Source: a virus (taxonomy: Duplodnaviria; Heunggongvirae; Uroviricota; Caudoviricetes). From it: a DNA stretch of 49,193 bases. This document shows positions 10,789-30,886 of the stretch, piece after piece. The stretch lies in IMG/VR virus record IMGVR_UViG_3300045988_148039; one strand, written 5' to 3'. The position numbers were made by a program, and so were the translations under genes. How positions within the stretch are numbered: position 1 is the first letter of the stretch; each line of letters starts with the position of its first letter. The notes under the pieces were generated by a model, which searched no databases, was not told where the DNA came from, and was given only the letters and a program-made list of their open reading frames with translations.

Positions 10789-11057
10789 TACTCATCATCT
10801 CCTGCTGCACATACAACCTCACAAAAAACATCAGCGGAATGTTTCTCCTTGAACGAATGACGCTCAAAACCGCACTCAATATCAGGCGCAAAAACATCCA
10901 CCACATACGGTCTTTCAGAATGTTTGTTTTCCCAACGATAAACCGTAGTGACGTTGAAATGTTTTAACGCTTCACGGAACTCAACGCTGCCCGTCAGGTT
11001 TTTTGAGGTCAGGTATTGCAGGAGGTTTTTTACTACTTCACGGTCTTGTACTTTCAT
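10788..11057 (-). CDS. Hypothetical protein (first gene behind repeat cassette A)
   Basis: 89-aa ORF; ATG preceded by GGAGA inside the conserved leader. Confidence 0.45.
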   Translation of the reverse strand: MKVQDREVVKNLLQYLTSKNLTGSVEFREALKHFNVTTVYRWENKHSERPYVVDVFAPDIECGFERHSFKEKHSADVFCEVVCAAGDDE

Positions 11058-11065
11058 CGGGTTAT

Positions 11066-11173
11066 CTCCGGTTTAACCAGGGCGGGTATCGCTCGGTTTC
11101 GGGTATAACCATAGGAAATTTTTTCCCACCTGTAAAGCACTTTTTATATAAATCTATAATTATATAATTCTAT
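11066..11173 (-). promoter_or_regulatory. Conserved promoter/leader cassette, copy A (AT-rich palindromic motif plus ~75-nt leader ending in the RBS)
   Basis: Near-identical to 18236..18345 and 27641..27750; contains TATAAATCTATAATTATATAA and ends ...CCGGAGA just before the ATG at 11057. Confidence 0.7.
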
Positions 11174-11757
11174 GACATTTGCCAGAGAGCATCATGCAAC
11201 TGGATACCTCCGTTGCACTGGTTGCCCCAGCCATGCCAGCCATCAGGTAAATCACCGCGAGCAAACAGCTCAATACGAGGAACATCGCCTAACAGCTTTA
11301 CCAGCTTGTCACGGACCACATCAGGCTTCCGAGAATGCTCCAGACGAGGCGATGTAAACGACTGAATGATCCCCGCATCAAGACGGGTCGGCAGTTTGCC
11401 TTTTACCGCAAACAAGCAGTCTTCACTGTTTGCACGAGTCATATGCCCCATCCCCATCACCAGCTTATCTGGTTGTCGGCTACCACATTTGTTCCATGTG
11501 AAGCCCTTCATGGTCATCAGCCTGAATCCCCATGCTTTCACCACCAGCAACGCTTCTTCTGGCTGAGTCGGAACCCACCACATGGCCAACAAACACGATT
11601 CAGGATTAGCAAGCTGCCAGACAGGAATACGAGCAATCTCCTCAGCTTTCATCGTTGGATACTTAAAACCAGCTCCACGATTCCCATCCTTACACTTGTC
11701 TTTGTATTCCCAGGGGGGATCTGCATAAATCAGATTAAACAATGCAATTTCCTCCAT
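11170..11757 (-). CDS. MT-A70-family N6-adenine DNA methyltransferase
   Basis: 195 aa with N-terminal catalytic DPPW motif (LIYADPPWEY). Confidence 0.75.
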   Translation of the reverse strand: MEEIALFNLIYADPPWEYKDKCKDGNRGAGFKYPTMKAEEIARIPVWQLANPESCLLAMWWVPTQPEEALLVVKAWGFRLMTMKGFTWNKCGSRQPDKLVMGMGHMTRANSEDCLFAVKGKLPTRLDAGIIQSFTSPRLEHSRKPDVVRDKLVKLLGDVPRIELFARGDLPDGWHGWGNQCNGGIQLHDALWQMS

Positions 11758-12065: not shown

Positions 12066-12141
12066 TGGTGGCCCCTACCGGATTTGAACCGATGACCGTG
12101 CGATTATGAGTCGCCTGCTCTAACCACTAAGCTAAGGGGCC
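12066..12141 (-). tRNA. tRNA, anticodon CAT (Met, or lysidine-modified minor Ile2 given resemblance to E. coli ileX as I recall it)
   Basis: Reverse complement folds as a cloverleaf: 7-bp acceptor stem GGCCCCT/AGGGGCC, T-arm with TTCAAAT loop, anticodon loop CTCATAA, encoded 3' CCA. Confidence 0.8.
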
Positions 12142-18229: not shown

Positions 18230-18235
18230 CAGATT

Positions 18236-18345
18236 TCTCCGGTTTAACCAGGGCGGGTATCGCTCGGTTTCGGGTATAACCATAGGAAATTTTTTCCCAC
18301 CTGTAAAGCACTTTTTTATATAAATCTATAATTATATATTTATAG
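18236..18345 (-). promoter_or_regulatory. Conserved promoter/leader cassette, copy B
   Basis: Near-identical to copies A and C; its AT-rich part extends into a longer near-palindrome ATCTATAATTATATATTTATAGAT. Confidence 0.7.
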
Positions 18346-22184: not shown

Positions 22185-22853
22185 ATGGAGTCTCGACAAA
22201 TGACTATCTCTGTAGGTATTTTCAACGGAAAAGGCGGCGTAACCAAATCAACAATTGCCCGTGCTTTAGCAGTTGCTTATGCAAAGGCCGGCTGGAATGT
22301 ATGCCTGATCGATATGGATGTGCTTAACGGAACGGTAACGCGTTGGGTACAACGCAGAATGGCCAACAATATCGAACCTGCAATCGCGGCGCAGCCGTGC
22401 GGCACGCCATCACAAGTCCAGAAAATCATCGAATCAGAAGTATACGACCTGGTTATCGTCGATGGCGGTGCCTACGCATCTGAATCAGTACCGAAGCTCT
22501 CTGAATTTCTGGATATGGTTATTTTGCCAACCAGATTCTCTACCGATGACCTGGAAACCACCGTTAACACAGCTCATGGCATCGTTAAAAAGGGTGTGCC
22601 AATCAAGAAAATTTGCATGGTGTTCTCAGGCGCGGCTGAAAACGAAGCCGACTACATTGAAGCCCAAGAGTACCTGGCTAATACGCCATACTTTGTTGTC
22701 GATAAGTACATTCCCCACAAGCCAGCTCTGAGCAAAGCTCAGGATAAGGGCTTAAGCCTCATTGAATGCTCATACGTTGCGCCACGCAAAAAGGCAGACG
22801 ACGTTATTCAGGGGATTATCAACCAGCTTGAGGCTCTGACTACTGCCGCGTAA
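22185..22853 (+). CDS. ParA/ParF-type partition ATPase
   Basis: 222 aa with deviant Walker A NGKGGVTKST. Confidence 0.75.
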   Translation: MESRQMTISVGIFNGKGGVTKSTIARALAVAYAKAGWNVCLIDMDVLNGTVTRWVQRRMANNIEPAIAAQPCGTPSQVQKIIESEVYDLVIVDGGAYASESVPKLSEFLDMVILPTRFSTDDLETTVNTAHGIVKKGVPIKKICMVFSGAAENEADYIEAQEYLANTPYFVVDKYIPHKPALSKAQDKGLSLIECSYVAPRKKADDVIQGIINQLEALTTAA

Positions 22854-22854
22854 T

Positions 22855-22893
22855 ATATAATTATAGTTTTATAGATTTATATAAGAGGGGATA
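22855..22893. promoter_or_regulatory. AT-rich palindromic motif copy between the ParA-type and RHH genes
   Basis: TAATATATAATTATAGTTTTATAGATTTATATAA read directly. Confidence 0.45.
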
Positions 22894-23366: not shown

Positions 23367-23389
23367 TAAAAAAGGCCCCCGAAGGGGCC
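23367..23389 (-). terminator. Rho-independent terminator (GGCCCC-GAA-GGGGCC with run of T on the minus strand)
   Basis: Perfect GC hairpin preceded on the plus strand by AAAAAAA; read directly. Confidence 0.6.
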
Positions 23390-23395
23390 TAATCG

Positions 23396-23518
23396 CTACT
23401 TGCTGCTAATGTTTATCGTCACATTCAGAGCGTTATCAGTAATCTTCCAACCCTCCCCATGTGGCGTAAACAAAGCTCCAGTAACAACGATAAAAATACA
23501 CATACAGTATTTTTTCAT
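23396..23518 (-). CDS. Small hydrophobic peptide (about 40 aa)
   Basis: Internal ATG at 23518 gives MKKYCMCIFIVVTGALFTPHGEGWKITDNALNVTINISSK; terminator immediately downstream. Confidence 0.3.
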   Translation of the reverse strand: MKKYCMCIFIVVTGALFTPHGEGWKITDNALNVTINISSK

Positions 23519-23916
23519 TGTATGGCCCTTACAGGCCGTTTCACGGCATCCCCACCGACGAAAACAACGCGAGAGCAAGCACGGCTGCTTGTGCTTGCAT
23601 GTACGGCAACGGAGAATCCTCCCCTAAAGTCGGTGCCCGGGTGCGAATCGGCGGGAAGGTCCACAGGTATTTTACGATTATTTTAAGATTAGTAATAGGA
23701 AAGAAATTAAACGAAAAAACTCGTTTATTTTCACAAAATCAGTAACCTACCCACAATCTGTGAGTTTGCAGGCACAACAAGAACCACAATTTTTTGAAGC
23801 ATAATAGTGGACTATTATTACCTTTTGGGTAAAATTAACTTGCTGCTTGTGCTTGCGTGGTTGTTTATACAACAACGTAATGCTGAAAGGACCGCGAATC
23901 CGATCAGCACGAAAGA

Positions 23917-24034: not shown

Positions 24035-24110
24035 AGCCGTAGCAAAATCTACGGTCGGGATTAGCCTCCTGAATAACACGATGGCGCATACCGCGTTAGC
24101 GGTTTTTTTA
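24035..24110 (+). ncRNA. Candidate small antisense RNA (immI/C4-like position upstream of the antirepressor)
   Basis: TTGACA at 24001..24006; about 75 nt with hairpin CCGTAG-caaaatc-TACGG and a 3' hairpin plus T-run at 24090..24109; GATTAGCCTC at 24058 recurs at 24224 next to the following ORF. Confidence 0.3.
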
Positions 24111-24235
24111 TGCGTAGAGCACTGTTACGCCCAAATTATGGTGGGTCGTACAGGGGCGGAGAAATCCGCGCCGGTTCGTCATTGTGTCCGGTAAGGCTAA
24201 CCCTGTACGGCTCACCACCATTTGATTAGCCTCGA

Positions 24236-24463
24236 ATGGCGGTGATAGTTCCATATACTGGAGATATCACAATGACAAACCTACCCCATGACTATTACGT
24301 CAACCTCGTAAAGATCCTTCTCAAGAAAGCCTCATACGCCGATAAATTCCGCCTGGCTGAAATCATCGAGCGCGAAGCTATGCGCATCGCCAGCAACGAT
24401 AACGCTGTTTCTGACGCAAAAATCTCCCTCGTAACCAAAGTAGTTATGGGAGGTGCAAAATGA
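24236..24463 (+). CDS. Small protein upstream of and overlapping the antirepressor start
   Basis: 75-aa ORF; stop overlaps the antirepressor ATG. Confidence 0.35.
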   Translation: MAVIVPYTGDITMTNLPHDYYVNLVKILLKKASYADKFRLAEIIEREAMRIASNDNAVSDAKISLVTKVVMGGAK

Positions 24464-25611
24464 AAACGCTTCGGACCGTTAACACCCTACAGCCTATCCT
24501 GCATAATCAGATTCCAGTAATCACAACTGAGCTACTCGCCCGCCTTTATGGAACAGAAGCAATCCGTATACAGCAAAATCACCATGAAAATAAAACTCGG
24601 TTCATTGAGGGGAAGCACTTCTTTAAAGCTGTTGGTGATGAACTCAAAAATTTGCGACTAGTTTTAAACGAGTCACAAAATGAGGTACAAATTTCCCCCA
24701 AAACTCGCTCTCTCATCCTCTGGACAGAACGTGGGGCTGCACGTCACGCTAAAATGCTCGAAACCGATCAGGCGTGGGATGTGTTCGAACGTCTGGAAGA
24801 CTGCTATTTCAGCCAGAACGCGCAAACGGCCGCGACCGTAACCGTCTCACCAAACAATGCTCGTGAGGTTGTCGATACGCTCAACGCCAAACCAATGTAT
24901 TACGTTAAGGTGTGCAACAACGAGCCACTCACAACCTCAGCCGATGTTGCCCAAGCATTCAGCACCACAAACAATTCCATCGTTATGGCCATCGATGCGT
25001 TACGCATTCCTCGCACGGCTGCGGCGCGTCACTTCTTTAAAGAACAACGACCGCTGGAAGGAAGCGACCGCGAAATAACAATCTATCGCATGACAAAAGA
25101 CGGATTTACCTTGCTCATGGAGAGTATCGACGGTCCAGGCGTGAAAGATATCAAGCTGGCCTACATTGAAGCCTTTAACGCTATCAGCAGCGTGTTAAAA
25201 ACACAGTACGAGCGTGATCTGGCTAAACGACTGTACCAGGAAAAAACGATTATCCGCGCGGCAACAGAGCATAATCGGCTATTAACGGAACCGAACTACA
25301 GGAAGGAACTAATAAAGGAGTTTGACAAGGCAACAGGGAAAACCAAAGCGGCGCTAAATCTGCCAGCAATGACTCAGGAAAATGTGATATCAGCCTTACT
25401 TCTTGATCTGCTCAGAAACGCCAGAGCACTTATCAGCTTTGACGAAAATCTGAACCCTCAGCTCAAACTACTACCACCGACAGGCAAAGTAGTCGACCAA
25501 GCTGATCACAACAGCATACTCAGCGTACTGGATGCAAACCTGCCAGCCAAGACACTACAGGAACTGATAAAAATATCTGCGGATAAACTGGCCGCAGGTG
25601 CAAAACCATAA
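24460..25611 (+). CDS. Antirepressor-like protein
   Basis: 383 aa; domain assignment (KilA-N/ORF6N-like N-terminus, Rha-like middle) is from memory of those families. Confidence 0.6.
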   Translation: MKTLRTVNTLQPILHNQIPVITTELLARLYGTEAIRIQQNHHENKTRFIEGKHFFKAVGDELKNLRLVLNESQNEVQISPKTRSLILWTERGAARHAKMLETDQAWDVFERLEDCYFSQNAQTAATVTVSPNNAREVVDTLNAKPMYYVKVCNNEPLTTSADVAQAFSTTNNSIVMAIDALRIPRTAAARHFFKEQRPLEGSDREITIYRMTKDGFTLLMESIDGPGVKDIKLAYIEAFNAISSVLKTQYERDLAKRLYQEKTIIRAATEHNRLLTEPNYRKELIKEFDKATGKTKAALNLPAMTQENVISALLLDLLRNARALISFDENLNPQLKLLPPTGKVVDQADHNSILSVLDANLPAKTLQELIKISADKLAAGAKP

Positions 25612-26916: not shown

Positions 26917-27189
26917 TCATTTGATCCCTTGTTCCAATTCTGACGACACTTTAACCTTTTCCCATACAAGGGTTTGCAGCCTTAACAGAATCGCATCTTT
27001 ATCAAGGTGTGAAAGATCCTTAACCATATCGTCAAACGACAGAACGCGAATGGCCATCTCAATGACCCTCGGCGGCTCCCCCTTCTCATATCGCTTATAT
27101 GTAGCCAACGATATCCCAAATTCTTCGGCGGCTCGCTCCTGCGTCCAGTTCATCCCACGACGCCATAATTTCAATTCATAACCCGTCAT
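26917..27189 (-). CDS. XRE-family HTH regulator
   Basis: Start at ATG 27189 with GGAGG RBS; HTH segment WTQERAAEEFGISLATYKRYEKGE. Confidence 0.55.
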   Translation of the reverse strand: MTGYELKLWRRGMNWTQERAAEEFGISLATYKRYEKGEPPRVIEMAIRVLSFDDMVKDLSHLDKDAILLRLQTLVWEKVKVSSELEQGIK

Positions 27190-27218
27190 AGCATCCTCCG
27201 CGCACAATATTAACACTC

Positions 27219-27243
27219 GCAAAGTGTCAAAATGACACTTTGC
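27219..27243. promoter_or_regulatory. Perfect 11-bp inverted repeat GCAAAGTGTCA-aaa-TGACACTTTGC (candidate operator)
   Basis: Read directly about 30 bp upstream of the HTH gene start. Confidence 0.55.
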
Positions 27244-27252
27244 GCATTGTGT

Positions 27253-27633
27253 TTACTTAACGAGGAATAAAAATGGTTTATTGTTAGGCGGTGTAATCGG
27301 GGCTGGCTCGCTTTTGCTCATGCGATCAGTGTACCAGGCCAGCTCCTTGTCAAAGTAAGCCTGATTAAAATAGGCCATGAATGTAGTTTCAAATCCATAA
27401 CGACCGCTAATACGCAGCATCTGATTGCCGTTCTCTGTTTCCAGATATACCTGGGCACGTTCCTGATTCTCCTTCAGCCAGGTTAAAGCCTCGTCGCACG
27501 AGGACACACGATACTCATCATCGTAGCCGTCATCGATGCGGCTTGAAGAAGAACGGCAAATCACGCCAACAGAACCAGCCAGGATAGTTTGAATTTTAAG
27601 GAAAGCGTTTTTGCGGATTTTGATCATGCTCAT
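27253..27633 (-). CDS. Hypothetical protein (first gene behind repeat cassette C)
   Basis: 126-aa ORF; ATG preceded by GGAGA of the conserved leader. Confidence 0.45.
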   Translation of the reverse strand: MSMIKIRKNAFLKIQTILAGSVGVICRSSSSRIDDGYDDEYRVSSCDEALTWLKENQERAQVYLETENGNQMLRISGRYGFETTFMAYFNQAYFDKELAWYTDRMSKSEPAPITPPNNKPFLFLVK

Positions 27634-27640
27634 CGGGTTT

Positions 27641-27750
27641 TCTCCGGTTTAACCAGGGCGACTATCGCTCGGTTTCGGGTATAACCTTAGGAAATTTTTT
27701 CCCACCTGTAAAGCAGTTTTTATATAAATCTATAATTATATAATTCTATG
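27641..27750 (-). promoter_or_regulatory. Conserved promoter/leader cassette, copy C
   Basis: Differs from copy A at a handful of positions over about 105 bp; read directly. Confidence 0.7.
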
Positions 27751-27796
27751 AGCACAAAAAAGCCCCTTTGCAACAGGGGCTTATCATTCGTTCTGA

Positions 27797-28096
27797 TCAG
27801 ATGTTAAACGCTATTCGTTTTCCTGTGGGAAGCTCAACATCCAGGCTTAATTTGCCTCCCATAGATTCAACGTAACGCTTTAATGTCGCCAGCTTTAAAT
27901 CATTTCCGCGCTGCTCCAGCTTTGTTACTGCTGGCTGGCTTATACCCATCGCCTCAGCAACCTGTTTTTGTGATAACTGGAGTTCTTCACGCATCATCTG
28001 CAAGCCGACCTCAAGAATCATCTCATCTGCCATTTCTTTAATTCGCGCCTGGCTTTCAGGTGAACGGCTGGCAATCGCCTCATCTAATGTTCTCAT
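27797..28096 (-). CDS. HigA-like HTH antitoxin
   Basis: 99-aa HTH protein immediately downstream of the toxin-like gene. Confidence 0.6.
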   Translation of the reverse strand: MRTLDEAIASRSPESQARIKEMADEMILEVGLQMMREELQLSQKQVAEAMGISQPAVTKLEQRGNDLKLATLKRYVESMGGKLSLDVELPTGKRIAFNI

Positions 28097-28449
28097 TACT
28101 TGCTCTCCAGTGTGTTCAGATGTGCTGCAAACTCATCCTCAGCTATACGCACCAGTTTTTCATAAAACCGTTTATCGTTACTTTTGTCTCCTGCACAAAG
28201 AACGATGGCCCGGCGAATCGGATCGAACGCATAAAAGGCTCTTATCGGACGGCCAGAAAACTGAACGCGAAGCTCTTTCATATTTTTGTACCGAGAACCT
28301 TTTACGGTATCGGCATATGGCCTGGGTAACTCAGGTCCGTAAACCTGTAGCTTTTTCAAATCAGCCAAAACCTTTTCCTGAAGAGCGTCTTCTTGCTCAT
28401 TTAGCCAGTCGTCAAATCGCTGGCTAAAAAGTACCGTCCACATGCTCAA
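28096..28449 (-). CDS. HigB/RelE-family toxin-like protein
   Basis: 117 aa; toxin-upstream order as in HigBA; stop overlaps the antitoxin start. Confidence 0.6.
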   Translation of the reverse strand: MSMWTVLFSQRFDDWLNEQEDALQEKVLADLKKLQVYGPELPRPYADTVKGSRYKNMKELRVQFSGRPIRAFYAFDPIRRAIVLCAGDKSNDKRFYEKLVRIAEDEFAAHLNTLESK

Positions 28450-28687
28450 TCCTATAACCTGTAGTTTATATCACTAACTATATAACCTGTGAGTTATAAT
28501 TTCAAGAAAAACGGGGCTATTTAACATAATGGACGTTATCGGCACCACCGGATCACCGTTCGTTGTCGGATCTAAAAAATCCGCTCAAAAGATCATGTTT
28601 TCCTGGGCGTTTTCCACCGTTTTTTATGTTGCTTATTTGTTAATGAAATCTCGTTTCCAGTTTCGCCTCATTTTCGACGCGAAAGCC

Positions 28688-28978
28688 CTATTTTTGTGAC
28701 TTTACTCCTGGCATATGGACTTCCCAGCGCCGAATCCCCATAGCTGCGCAAAAATCAGCCACATAATTCAATCCCGCCCATTCGCGGATACCACCACGGG
28801 CTTTTTCAATGAAAACGGCAATCCCTTTTTTATTGAGAGCAAAAAGCCGCCAGCTTTTTGTCACTTCGTCCTGGGTAGCCACAACACAAGTGAAAGCGCC
28901 CATGCGATACAGGTCCAAGAACTCTTTGCGTGTTTTGCGTACAAGTTCCATAACAAACCTCATATTTGCATGTTTCAA
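28688..28978 (-). CDS. Hypothetical protein
   Basis: 96-aa ORF translationally coupled to 28975..29274. Confidence 0.4.
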   Translation of the reverse strand: MKHANMRFVMELVRKTRKEFLDLYRMGAFTCVVATQDEVTKSWRLFALNKKGIAVFIEKARGGIREWAGLNYVADFCAAMGIRRWEVHMPGVKSQK

Positions 28979-29274
28979 ACATCTGTTTTGTCATCAATGA
29001 AGATTAACCCTAACCCAGCGAAGTAACACAGCAGCGCCCAGGCTGCATACGGAATGCTGGATCTGGATGTGGACTCCTTTAACATCTGCCAGTTGCGAAC
29101 ATTGCGACTATCTTTTAAGCCAAGTTTTTTGGCCAACTGCGAGCCGCTCATTCCGGTCAGGCCAATGACTGCCCGAACTTCTCCACATGTAGGAGATTCC
29201 CATTCATCCGCTTTTTTTAAACAAGCCGGATTCAACATTTTTAAAACAGTATCTTTATCCATAACCATCTCCAT
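28975..29274 (-). CDS. HTH protein with C-terminal hydrophobic segment
   Basis: 99 aa; HTH-like MSGSQLAKKLGLKDSRNVRNWQ and C-terminal IPYAAWALLCYFAGLGLIFI. Confidence 0.4.
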   Translation of the reverse strand: MEMVMDKDTVLKMLNPACLKKADEWESPTCGEVRAVIGLTGMSGSQLAKKLGLKDSRNVRNWQMLKESTSRSSIPYAAWALLCYFAGLGLIFIDDKTDV

Positions 29275-29905: not shown

Positions 29906-30886
29906 TTAATGTTGGAGTGATTTCCAGGTCTTTCTTAGCCTGTTATAACGCTGCTCAACGAGGGAGCGTAAATATGCAAGGTCAGCTCCAGGATACATGC
30001 CATCAGCAAATTCCTGGCTAACCTCTCTAGTGATTTGATGACGAAGTTCGGCCTCTCCCTTTTCCCGAACAAGACGCGCAGCTCTCTCCGCTGCTTTCTG
30101 TTTTGCCTTTATCTCTCTGGCCGTCTTCCTCTGACGCCATACATTCTCCATCTGCTCCTGAATAACAATACGCTTATAATCAGCCTCCGTTATCGCTTTT
30201 TTAAGCCGTTCGCTATTCTTCGCATTGAAGTAATTAAGTTTCTGGCTAACCGCACGTCTCCATGCTTGTTCAGTAATACCAACGGTTTCCAGCAGTTGAT
30301 CACGAATCTCTATTTTCGCTGGCCAATACTGTTTATTCACCCGATCCCAGCGACGTTCATAATCAATAAAACCTAACGCTTTCAGTTGCGACAACGCCCT
30401 TGTACAGCGCGTTATAGACTTGTTCCCAGCTTCGGATACGGTAGACAGGCCGCAAAAATCAGCCAACGCCTCAGCACTAGCCAGAACCCGCTTAGAAATG
30501 ATGTTTACATGGTGCAAAATCGCAGCGATCACAGCATTAATCGCCCGACGACGATGCTCGTTTATCCGGCGCTTCCGCTCTGACGGTTGATTAACGTAGA
30601 ACGCAACCTCACACGTAAGATCACGCCCATTAATGCGCTGTAAAGCATCAGATAACACCAGCGGCAGCTTGTGCGTATGGTGCTTTGGAGGCTGGAACTC
30701 CGGCGACAAATTACAAACGTAAGCTGAACGTAGAGACGGCATTGGTCTATCCATATGTTCGCTCTTGCGTCCACGGAAAACCAACGTATAATGGGAGTTG
30801 TCGAGGCGCCCATGGATTGTTGTTGTTGGTTTTCCGTGGATGTCGCAAGAAGCCCGCAGATTTATCTGCGGGCTTTTTGTTTCCAT
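29906..30886 (-). CDS. repA: Plasmid replication initiator RepA (IncFII/RepFIIA-type); true start possibly internal (MDRPMPS, about 30754)
   Basis: Central segment NKSITRCTRALSQLKALGFIDYERRWD resembles R100/R1 RepA1 KLSITRATRALTFLSELGLITYQTEYD as I recall it; basic C-terminal half; length about 280 aa from the internal start. Confidence 0.7.
   Translation of the reverse strand: METKSPQINLRASCDIHGKPTTTIHGRLDNSHYTLVFRGRKSEHMDRPMPSLRSAYVCNLSPEFQPPKHHTHKLPLVLSDALQRINGRDLTCEVAFYVNQPSERKRRINEHRRRAINAVIAAILHHVNIISKRVLASAEALADFCGLSTVSEAGNKSITRCTRALSQLKALGFIDYERRWDRVNKQYWPAKIEIRDQLLETVGITEQAWRRAVSQKLNYFNAKNSERLKKAITEADYKRIVIQEQMENVWRQRKTAREIKAKQKAAERAARLVREKGEAELRHQITREVSQEFADGMYPGADLAYLRSLVEQRYNRLRKTWKSLQH

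Follow-up and report, generated by a model that had tools for sequence, protein, structure and literature searches.

Related HigBA systems

Gp49-type toxins form a family of ribosome-dependent mRNases, and PF_gp49 is entered with the toxin/antitoxin gene order (PMC11980606). Their stated hallmark is a long C-terminal helix, and some members, such as Mycobacterium tuberculosis HigB2 and HigB3, are non-toxic (PMC9098466). The HigBA (tad-ata) pair of IncC (IncA/C) plasmids is an addiction module whose toxic, ribosome-dependent RNase cleaves mRNA (Qi, Kamruzzaman and Iredell 2021, PMC8265657); with it, retention of pACYC184 reached 99–100%, as against an 11.7% loss in the control, and Gly-64 is essential in its toxin (PMC8265657). 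In the HigBA pair of the Acinetobacter baumannii pAB120 family, the RNase toxin is blocked by HigA, which also represses the promoter with HigB as co-repressor (Armalyte et al. 2018, PMC5906591). In Vibrio cholerae HigA2, the segment that neutralises the toxin is N-terminal and the C-terminal part forms a helix-turn-helix (HTH) dimer (Hadzi et al. 2017, PMC5416850). In the P1 group of phage-plasmids, phd-doc is among the persistent plasmid-like genes (PMC7969092).

The window analysed here, a whole stretch of 49,193 nucleotides, is a ~49-kb myovirus phage-plasmid carrying a two-gene cassette whose toxin and antitoxin are 55% and 44% identical, respectively, to HigB and HigA of IncC plasmids. 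The IncC pair is likewise toxin-first, combines a Gp49-type toxin with an XRE antitoxin and is plasmid-borne in a maintenance backbone, as here. Its HigB is identical to the window toxin at Gly-64, Lys-56–Glu-57–Leu-58–Arg-59, Arg-68, Lys-87, Lys-91 and Tyr-94. The two differ in that the IncC host is a large conjugative plasmid rather than a phage-plasmid and in that 4 nt separate the IncC genes, whereas those of the window overlap by 1 nt. In addition, the IncC module is ciprofloxacin-induced, whereas the cassette promoter contains no LexA-type CTG-N10-CAG box. Identities to the HigB and HigA of an Acinetobacter plasmid were 57% for the toxin and 60% for the antitoxin; this comparison used p2016LNAB1-3, not pAB120. 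The upstream palindrome of the Acinetobacter module is of the same 6-N6-6 design as that of the window, but its half-site differs (TATAGA-N6-TCTATA), and Acinetobacter loci usually have one palindrome where the window has two.

Other described systems are more distant. Streptococcus pneumoniae HigBA (6AF3/6AF4) and M. tuberculosis HigB-TAC resemble the window toxin in fold, including the long C-terminal helix, although solved Gp49-like toxins show only 14–18% identity to it in structural alignments, and HigB-TAC requires a SecB-like chaperone that the cassette lacks. M. tuberculosis HigA2 (7EWC) and HigA3 (6LTY) are solved antitoxins resembling that of the window, but their HigB2 and HigB3 partners are non-toxic. 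V. cholerae HigBA2 (5JAA; PMC5416850) is like the window pair in being toxin-first, in its C-terminal helix and probably in the RelE-like layout of its active site and in the plan of its antitoxin; its toxin nevertheless belongs to PF06296 (PMC11980606), whereas that of the window belongs to PF05973. The founding member, HigBA of Proteus vulgaris Rts1, shares the toxin-first order, XRE antitoxin, plasmid location and palindrome autoregulation, but its HigB belongs to PF05015, has an active site of His, Asp and Tyr and is without the C-terminal helix. As the addiction module of a plasmid prophage, phd-doc of the phage-plasmid P1 is a functional analogue, although it is antitoxin-first and encodes unrelated proteins, Doc being a Fic kinase.

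Organization of the gene pair

Positions 27797–28449 are occupied exactly by two minus-strand open reading frames (28096–28449 and 27797–28096). The features of the cassette, in the direction of transcription, are as follows.

28500–28505, minus strand: −35 hexamer TTGAAA of the operon promoter (sigma-70 scan)
28481–28498, minus strand: putative operator O1, a perfect palindrome (TATAAC-TCACAG-GTTATA) that fills the promoter spacer and overlaps the −10 hexamer
28477–28482, minus strand: −10 hexamer TATAGT (sigma-70 scan)
28453–28470, minus strand: putative operator O2 (TATAAA-CTACAG-GTTATA, one mismatch), between the −10 hexamer and the ribosome-binding site
28450–28453, minus strand: Shine-Dalgarno sequence AGGA of the toxin gene, 6 nt from the ATG (direct reading of the sequence)
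28096–28443, minus strand: toxin gene, 115 aa, Gp49-type HigB of the RelE/ParE superfamily; stop codon TAA at 28096–28098
28105–28108, minus strand: ribosome-binding site GGAG of the antitoxin gene, within the end of the toxin gene and 8 nt from the ATG (direct reading)
27797–28096, minus strand: antitoxin gene, 99 aa, HigA-type with an XRE helix-turn-helix at residues 32–81; stop codon TGA at 27797–27799
27760–27782, minus strand: intrinsic terminator with an 8-bp GC-rich stem (AAGCCCCU/AGGGGCUU) followed by UUUUUGUG, 15 nt past the antitoxin stop codon (terminator scan)

The longest toxin reading frame starts at a TTG at 28449 and would encode 117 aa. The start codon is most likely the ATG at 28443, however, because the AGGA lies 6 nt from this ATG and would abut the TTG, and because toxin homologues begin with MW(T/I)V and the RefSeq entry is 348 nt long. 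The toxin stop codon TAA and the antitoxin ATG (28094–28096) form a TAATG sequence in which base 28096 is common to both. Antisense reading frames on the plus strand within the toxin gene (28060–28329 and 28110–28427) were disregarded as lacking support.

The earlier note had proposed a HigB/HigA-like pair with toxin-first order, an overlapping stop and start and an HTH antitoxin, and each of these proposals held: the upstream frame encodes a RelE-superfamily toxin of the Gp49 (PF05973) branch, the downstream frame on the same minus strand encodes the XRE-HTH antitoxin, and the overlap amounts to the single shared base. The cassette is a complete and intact two-gene Gp49-type HigBA (tad-ata) type II toxin-antitoxin module, and public records already annotate it as one; that the pair is a Gp49/XRE toxin-antitoxin module is, in our estimation, close to certain.

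The toxin and the antitoxin

The toxin matched Pfam Gp49 (PF05973) over 89 of the 90 profile positions, scoring 81.2 bits (cut-off, 23.9; E = 5.7e-23), and was placed in PHROG 3445, "toxin" (E = 2e-33). Gp49 was the only Pfam family found at E ≤ 0.01, with no match to the families of Rts1 HigB (PF05015), Escherichia coli K-12 HigB (PF09907) or V. cholerae HigB2 (PF06296), and the toxin scored 18.9 bits, below the cut-off of 62.85, for the NCBIfam equivalog TIGR02683 (upstrm_HI1419 RelE/ParE toxin). An AlphaFold2 model (pLDDT 90.5) predicted a beta-alpha-alpha-beta4 arrangement followed by a long C-terminal helix at residues 91–114. When this model was used in Foldseek, a probability of 1.00 was obtained for Thermus thermophilus RelE (2KHE, E = 6.9e-5), S. 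pneumoniae HigB (6AF4, TM 0.73) and V. cholerae HigB2 (5JAA, E = 1.6e-4). As modelled, the toxin has the RelE/ParE (BECR) fold, including the long C-terminal helix of Gp49-type toxins. Sequence searches of solved structures with the single sequence, a 31-sequence profile or a profile of 50 sequences chosen as distant representatives gave no real match to the toxin, so its relation to the solved toxins is read from Pfam and Foldseek only.

In a 50-sequence alignment with a mean column identity of 43%, Lys-56, Glu-57, Leu-58, Arg-59, Arg-68, Lys-87 and Tyr-94 of the toxin were at least 90% conserved; Gly-64 and Lys-91 were at least 90% conserved or invariant in closer homologues and identical in the IncC and Acinetobacter toxins. 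The spacing E-x-R...R(+9)...K...K(+4) is that of Glu-66, Arg-68, Arg-77, Lys-95 and Lys-99 in M. tuberculosis HigB-TAC (PMC9098466), residue equivalences that rest on spacing and Foldseek ranking rather than on residue-by-residue superposition. In its distal half, the C-terminal helix is mixed or acidic (Glu-102, Asp-103 and Glu-104), as in the non-toxic M. tuberculosis HigB2 and HigB3, and the position equivalent to Phe-93 of HigB-TAC is non-aromatic.

The antitoxin matched three HTH families in Pfam: HTH_3 (36.9 bits, cut-off 23; E = 3.8e-9), HTH_37 (31.2 bits, cut-off 27) and HTH_31 (28.4 bits, cut-off 27). It falls in PHROG 2339 (E = 2e-30), and its best sequence matches in the PDB were M. 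tuberculosis HigA3 (6LTY), HigA2 (7EWC) and S. pneumoniae HigA (6AF3_B), all of which partner Gp49-type toxins. Its N-terminal segment is conserved, and with 99 residues it is not extended at the C terminus when compared with the IncC and Acinetobacter antitoxins. An AlphaFold2 model of the antitoxin was set aside (pLDDT 70, pTM 0.38), as it contained implausibly long helices and was built on a shallow alignment of sequences 85–100% identical.

Promoter, putative operators and terminator

The promoter hexamers, TTGAAA and TATAGT, are separated by a 17-nt spacer and give 10 of 12 matches in the sigma-70 scan; many relatives carry TTGAAA or TTGACA at the equivalent −35 position. O1 and O2, 28 bp apart, cover the promoter spacer, the −10 hexamer and the transcript start. 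The 6-N6-6 palindrome was kept in 79 of the 81 regions upstream of homologous operons (mean in shuffled sequences, 37.7; maximum, 48), and two palindromes were present at 50 of the 81 loci (shuffled mean, 9.1; maximum, 16). The two half-sites co-vary across loci, occurring as TATAAG/CTTATA, TATAGA/TCTATA, TATAGC/GCTATA and TATAAC/GTTATA. Judged from these sequence patterns, the palindromes are probably autorepression operators in the cassette's own promoter. At the other end, the terminator hairpin appeared in both the minimum-free-energy (−15.6 kcal/mol) and the centroid folds of a 56-nt stretch. Since the genes are enclosed by a promoter with two palindromes and an intrinsic terminator, the cassette forms a self-contained operon.

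Replicon context and distribution

The cassette lies between repA and parA, with all three in one ~9-kb region. An IncFII-type repA was identified at 29906–30886 (NCBIfam RepA_IncFII_LM, 231 bits), ~1.46 kb from the cassette with two small open reading frames intervening, which bears out the placement of the pair next to the replicon. The conserved-leader gene said to adjoin it was also found: the gene after the terminator (27253–27633) has its own conserved promoter-leader, a ~120-nt upstream region repeated at 11054–11175 and 18234–18344, and no Pfam match. The cassette keeps its position in a relative from Salmonella, the repA of which shows only 77% identity. Members of this family of ~47–50-kb myovirus phage-plasmids are present in ~1.5% of complete E. 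coli genomes, and some were isolated as phages of Yersinia. Membership in the pSLy3 phage-plasmid group was considered and rejected: pSLy3 belongs to the SSU5 supergroup, the phages of which are ~100-kb siphoviruses, whereas the window is a 49-kb myovirus. Literature searches with the phage names or RefSeq protein accessions found nothing specific.

At all 80 related loci examined, a homologous antitoxin gene lay directly downstream on the same strand; the toxin-to-antitoxin order was constant, and the gaps were mostly −8 to +12 nt. Toxin and antitoxin identities co-varied across loci (Pearson r = 0.85). For both genes, dN/dS was ~0.04–0.16 where dS was measurable; in most comparisons, dS was saturated while dN was still 0.05–0.35. 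Both genes are therefore under strong purifying selection. The profile scores, the adjoining antitoxin at every locus and the low dN/dS place the pair well beyond a chance arrangement.

Of the 89 copies of the cassette in complete E. coli genomes, 88 were plasmid-borne, and a homologue was present in 1969 plasmid records as against 7 of 50,697 phage records. The cassette alone, from the promoter to the antitoxin stop codon, recurs at 95% identity on pPCP1 and small plasmids. RefSeq names the toxin only "RelE/ParE family toxin". Yersinia phage records label it "higB2", a label that is nominal because V. cholerae HigB2 belongs to a different Pfam family (PF06296).

A proposed addiction operon and its alternatives

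We propose, with a probability of roughly 75% for the explanation as a whole, that the cassette is a self-contained, autorepressed Gp49-type HigBA operon encoding an RNase toxin and serving phage-plasmid addiction. As read from the sequence, a single promoter produces a bicistronic mRNA ending at the intrinsic terminator, with antitoxin translation coupled to that of the toxin through the TAATG overlap. The predicted fold and the characterised relatives at 55–57% identity suggest that the toxin (115 aa) would halt translation as a ribosome-dependent mRNA endonuclease of RelE fold. Its 99-aa partner would be a dimeric XRE-HTH protein that binds and neutralises the toxin, probably via its conserved N-terminal segment, and, alone or with the toxin as co-repressor, would bind the palindromes and repress the operon. 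The antitoxin would be the less stable partner, so that on loss of the plasmid-prophage the leftover toxin would arrest or kill the cell (post-segregational killing), an addiction that may assist RepA and ParA in the maintenance of a prophage that is extrachromosomal and low in copy number. On the analogy with characterised systems, we consider the RNase and autorepression mechanism very probable, and that addiction is the main selected role of the cassette somewhat better than an even bet. Post-segregational killing is favoured because the toxin and antitoxin resemble those of the plasmid-stabilising IncC HigBA and because carriage in E. coli is almost wholly plasmid-borne.

The same machine may instead serve mainly in abortive infection or superinfection exclusion, guarding the lysogen and the resident phage-plasmid against other phages: infection would stop host transcription or degrade the antitoxin, freeing the RNase. 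Because the replicon is a phage-plasmid, this is still a live, though less supported, reading, and we regard it as unlikely. Gp49-family HigB toxins in toxin-antitoxin-chaperone (TAC) modules cause abortive infection of lambda (PMC11980606), but both the third gene, for a SecB-like chaperone, and the chaperone-addiction tail of the antitoxin that mark HigBAC modules are absent from this locus, where the terminator follows 15 nt past the antitoxin gene. The toxin's PHROG is classed as "moron, auxiliary metabolic gene and host takeover", and PADLOC gave a weak match to the NsnC C-terminal domain (E = 6e-7), but no system-level match. A defensive role would also suit the presence of the cassette on the Rop-encoding ColE1-type plasmid pPCP1, which few daughter cells should fail to inherit. 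Against it, plasmid stabilisation, and not phage defence, is what has been demonstrated for the nearest characterised relatives, and homologues are scarce in phage records relative to plasmid records.

Two further readings concern the toxin itself. It may be attenuated or inactive, as are M. tuberculosis HigB2 and HigB3, leaving the pair a selfish remnant or an HTH regulator with its partner and little or no killing. Such non-toxic Gp49 toxins are known (PMC9098466), and the acidic second half of the C-terminal helix and the non-aromatic Phe-93 equivalent point the same way. However, purifying selection on the toxin is strong (dN/dS ~0.04–0.1), the residues important in toxic relatives (Gly-64, Glu-57, Arg-59, Arg-68, Lys-87, Lys-91 and Tyr-94) are all conserved, and the toxin is nearer to the toxic IncC and Acinetobacter proteins than to any solved structure; the antitoxin, moreover, is kept at every one of the 80 loci, as expected where the toxin is dangerous. 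Inactivity is accordingly quite improbable. Still less credible, to the point of being nearly negligible, is a ParE-like DNA-gyrase poison in place of an mRNA endonuclease: RelE and ParE have one fold and the RefSeq name does not separate them, but the sole Pfam match is to a family of ribosome-dependent mRNases, Foldseek puts RelE and HigB structures first with ParE2 only at rank 17 (E = 0.03), and the 55%-identical IncC toxin cleaves mRNA.

The Yersinia pestis pPCP1 cassette

A closely similar cassette lies beside pla on pPCP1 of Yersinia pestis (NC_004837.1, 7790–8430), with 95% nucleotide identity over window positions ~27807–28532; identity is 98% between the toxins and 93% between the antitoxins, and O1 has the same half-sites in both. 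The pPCP1 copy differs in that its carrier is a 9.6-kb ColE1-type plasmid with Rop, its terminator region is unrelated and its O2 is degraded (GGGGTAAGCTACAGGTTATA), whereas the window O2 has one mismatch. No paper describing the pPCP1 toxin-antitoxin cassette was found. An assignment of 52 Yersinia plasmid matches to pMT1 was rejected, as almost all were pPCP1 (9.6 kb), and a lead on a Y. pestis toxin variant (P0010), which looked inactivated because one of its beta-strands is scrambled, was dropped since the reference pPCP1 gene is intact.

Plasmid pPCP1 is multicopy, and the persistence of the cassette on such a ColE1-type replicon, which should seldom be lost at division, suggests that it may spread selfishly or have some other role. 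Y. pestis EV76, which carries pPCP1, was the isolation host of phages vB_YpM_39, 41 and 44, members of the same family as the window. Since the cassette moves as a discrete unit among phage-plasmids, small plasmids and pPCP1, cross-neutralisation between co-resident elements is plausible. That the phage-plasmid and pPCP1 cassettes do cross-talk, as an instrument of plasmid-phage conflict rather than of simple maintenance, is a speculation to which we give little credence. If it were true, incoming HigA could neutralise resident HigB and so act as an anti-addiction or anti-defence factor, allowing the phage-plasmid to infect hosts of pPCP1 or to oust that plasmid; in the opposite direction, HigA from the resident cassette could abolish the addiction imposed by the phage-plasmid.

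Significance

The cassette is of a known and ordinary kind and is already annotated, so it has little importance beyond correct annotation. The palindromes that co-vary over 80 loci offer a natural specificity series for HigA-operator recognition. For the phage-plasmids themselves, the analysis confirms that the ~47–50-kb myovirus family couples RepA and ParA to a HigBA-type cassette that probably serves addiction, the same strategy as that of P1 with phd-doc.

Operon architecture

The cassette is made up of two coupled minus-strand ORFs (27797-28449) and their expression signals. The earlier note had described a toxin-first gene order with overlapping stop and start codons, and the sequence bears this out: the toxin stop codon TAA (28096-28098) and the antitoxin ATG (28094-28096) have one base in common, in TAATG. 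The most likely start codon of the toxin is the ATG at 28443, giving 115 aa, because AGGA (28450-28453) precedes this ATG by 6 nt but would abut the TTG, because homologues have the N-terminus MW(T/I)V, and because this 348-nt version is the RefSeq annotation. The -10 element found by the promoter scan is flanked by two 18-nt palindromes, the putative operators O1 and O2.

28096-28449, minus strand: upstream (toxin) ORF in its longest form, 117 aa from TTG
27797-28096, minus strand: downstream (antitoxin) ORF, 99 aa
28105-28108, minus strand: GGAG, 8 nt upstream of the antitoxin ATG
28505-28500, minus strand: promoter -35, TTGAAA
28482-28477, minus strand: promoter -10, TATAGT, 17-nt spacer to the -35
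28481-28498: O1, TATAAC-TCACAG-GTTATA, perfect palindrome filling the promoter spacer and overlapping the -10
28453-28470: O2, TATAAA-CTACAG-GTTATA, between the -10 and the ribosome-binding site
27782-27760: GC-rich terminator hairpin, 8 bp, followed by UUUUUGUG, 15 nt past the antitoxin stop

Since promoter, operators, two coupled genes and terminator are all present, the cassette is a complete unit; directly past its terminator starts a separate element, the repeated promoter-leader that belongs to the next gene.

Identity and fold of the two proteins

The toxin matched Gp49 (PF05973) in Pfam (E 5.7e-23; 81.2 bits, cut-off 23.9), with no other Pfam family at E <= 0.01, and PHROG 3445, 'toxin' (E 2e-33). 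Its confident AlphaFold2 model (31-sequence alignment; pLDDT 90.5, pTM 0.84) consists of a strand, a two-helix hairpin, a four-stranded sheet and the long C-terminal helix typical of Gp49-like toxins (PMC9098466). The top group in a Foldseek search of the PDB comprised Thermus thermophilus RelE (E 6.9e-5), Streptococcus pneumoniae HigB (TM up to 0.73), Vibrio cholerae HigB2 (E 1.6e-4) and RelE of Escherichia coli, Mycobacterium tuberculosis and Pyrococcus horikoshii. The antitoxin, previously proposed to be an HTH protein, indeed carries a helix-turn-helix of the XRE type (residues 32-81; HTH_3, E 3.8e-9), and its best three PDB sequence matches are all HigA (M. tuberculosis HigA3 and HigA2, and S. 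pneumoniae HigA).

The current classification has 13 RelE/ParE families, of which PF_gp49 is characterized by toxin-then-antitoxin order and ribosome-dependent mRNase activity, and is separate from the Rts1 (PF05015), K-12 HigB (PF09907) and V. cholerae HigB2 (PF06296) families (PMC11980606). Because PF_gp49 is distinct from PF06296, the 'higB2' label in Yersinia phage records is only nominal. Scores of RefSeq records already give the pair the names 'type II toxin-antitoxin system RelE/ParE family toxin' and 'helix-turn-helix domain-containing protein'.

Conservation of the pair and its operators

One genome per species was scanned and the best 80 loci were kept (toxins 52-98% identical), from Enterobacterales, Pasteurellaceae, Moraxellaceae, Alcaligenaceae and others. 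All 80 had an antitoxin homologue directly downstream of the toxin on the same strand, mostly at a gap of -8 to +12 nt, and toxin and antitoxin identities co-varied over the loci (Pearson r 0.85). dS was saturated in most comparisons while dN was still 0.05-0.35; where dS was measurable, dN/dS was 0.04-0.16 for both genes. In an alignment of 50 much more diverse sequences (43% mean column identity), the toxin residues K56, E57, L58, R59, R68, K87 and Y94 were still at least 90% conserved.

Within the 100 nt upstream, 79 of 81 loci had a 6-N6-6 palindrome, one mismatch being allowed (shuffles: mean 37.7, maximum 48), and 50 of the 81 regions contained two (shuffled mean 9.1). Half-sites differed between lineages in a compensated manner (TATAAG/CTTATA, TATAGA/TCTATA, TATAGC/GCTATA, TATAAC/GTTATA and TATAAA/TTTATA), the pattern expected if the operator of a dimeric HTH protein co-evolves with its repressor.

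A mobile cassette in a phage-plasmid

The window is 98-99% identical to circular E. coli plasmids of ~47-50 kb, such as the ATCC 25922 plasmid. Three Yersinia phages whose isolation host was Y. pestis EV76-CN are just as close to it. An annotated relative has genes for terminase, portal, capsid, contractile tail, baseplate, tail fibres plus an invertase, and holin/endolysin, together with RepA and ParA, and is therefore a myovirus phage-plasmid. The cassette lies by the replication region, as the earlier note had placed it. It sits between repA and ParA and shares a ~9-kb block with the immunity elements; the 'conserved leader' reported beside it proved to be a ~115-120-nt repeat.

29906-30886: repA, IncFII-type (231 bits)
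22185-22853: ParA
27630-27751, 11054-11175 and 18234-18344: repeated promoter and 5'-leader, ~115-120 nt, three copies at 94-96% identity
22072-22095 and 22855-22884: shorter leader pieces
24036-24109, 24134-24222 and 24460-25611, plus strand: isrK RNA, C4 antisense RNA and ORF6N/Rha-domain antirepressor-like gene
28688-28978 and 28975-29274, minus strand: two small ORFs, 96 and 99 aa, 4-nt overlap, between cassette and repA

Every copy of the repeat combines an AT-rich palindrome (ATATAATTATAGATTTATAT) with a GC-rich leader and reaches the start codon (ATG) of an ORF on the minus strand (27633, 11057 and 18283). Rfam held no matching family; the repeat probably marks three co-regulated transcription units, for example with late or repressor-controlled promoters. 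The leader gene beside the cassette (27253-27633; PHROG 8090, function unknown) is followed by a strong hairpin (27218-27244) and a 101-aa HTH protein gene (26917-27222, minus strand; HTH_3, weak RstR-like and MqsA-like matches, PHROG 6962).

Rfam matches to isrK (65.7 bits) and C4 (70.8 bits) lie directly upstream of the antirepressor-like gene, an arrangement known from the P1/P7 immI immunity cassette. A tRNA gene (12069-12141, minus strand; 65.8 bits) and a full-length ryfA match (23368-23664, minus strand; 142 bits, gathering score 80) were also detected. ryfA encodes TimP, a small toxic protein under repression by the TimR sRNA, so the phage-plasmid may have a further toxin-antitoxin locus, of type I, close to parA. 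The two small ORFs, annotated as hypothetical (PHROGs 4595 and 8351, function unknown), are kept in all relatives. Weak HTH matches (mobile mystery protein A, E 1e-4) were obtained for the upstream ORF, and the pair might serve replication control or form a further regulatory or toxin-antitoxin-like module of two genes.

In a Salmonella relative with just 77% repA identity, the cassette position is the same. Among complete E. coli genomes, 85 of 5426 carry the cassette, and 88 of 89 copies are plasmid-borne. It also moves alone: small E. coli plasmids share the segment from promoter to antitoxin end (~27807-28532) at 95% identity, and Y. pestis pPCP1 (NC_004837.1, 7790-8430) carries it at 95% nucleotide identity directly downstream of the plasminogen activator gene pla, with flanks and terminator unrelated to the window's. 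A Firmicute scaffold (NZ_JH976447.1, Amphibacillus jilinensis Y1 Scaffold15, 9631 bp) is the size of pPCP1 and 99.96% identical to it over 4.5 kb, and is almost certainly contaminant Y. pestis pPCP1 sequence.

Characterized relatives and probable role

A protein search of plasmids found a homologue in 1969 records. A large group at 55% identity, at position ~13-15 kb of 90-335-kb plasmids from many genera (for example pSRC119-A/C, typed IncC), is the IncC higBA (tad-ata) of Qi et al. 2021 (PMC8265657). That toxin is a ribosome-dependent endoribonuclease that strongly inhibits E. coli growth and is inactivated by G64V, and pACYC184 carrying the pair showed 99-100% retention over 70 generations, against 11.7% loss of the control (PMC8265657). 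For the Acinetobacter family, the toxin was described as an RNase whose activity HigA blocks; HigA also represses the promoter, with HigB as co-repressor (PMC5906591). The window proteins are 55% (toxin) and 44% (antitoxin) identical to the IncC pair and 57% and 60% identical to an A. baumannii plasmid pair, the antitoxin N-terminal segment included. G64, K56-E57-L58-R59, R68, K87 and K91-R92-F93-Y94 are identical in all three toxins, and the spacing E-x-R, R at +9, K, K at +4 is that of E66/R68/R77/K95/K99 in ribosome-bound HigB-TAC, the M. tuberculosis Gp49-like toxin. By analogy with these 55-57%-identical relatives and from the modelled fold, the toxin would be a ribosome-dependent mRNase, HigA would neutralize it, and the operon would probably be autorepressed at O1 and O2.

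The cassette is thus a complete Gp49/XRE operon of two genes, under selection and with its palindromic operators conserved, and it lies where the plasmid prophage has its maintenance functions. We consider post-segregational killing in support of low-copy plasmid inheritance its probable role (probability about 0.55). Abortive infection or exclusion, a role seen for Gp49 toxins in toxin-antitoxin-chaperone systems (PMC11980606), is a less probable alternative for this cassette, which has no chaperone gene. Purifying selection and residue conservation speak against an attenuated toxin like M. tuberculosis HigB2 and HigB3, making this quite improbable, and a ParE-like gyrase poison is scarcely credible; ParE2 appeared only at rank 17 of the Foldseek ranking.

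Literature searches found no paper on the window orthologue or the pPCP1 copy. There is no novelty of substance, the family being already characterized both biochemically and as an addiction module; strictly, the window cassette belongs to a known family without having been characterized itself. One mildly unusual point, and a speculative one, is that in Y. pestis the phage-plasmid and pPCP1 cassettes might cross-neutralize each other.
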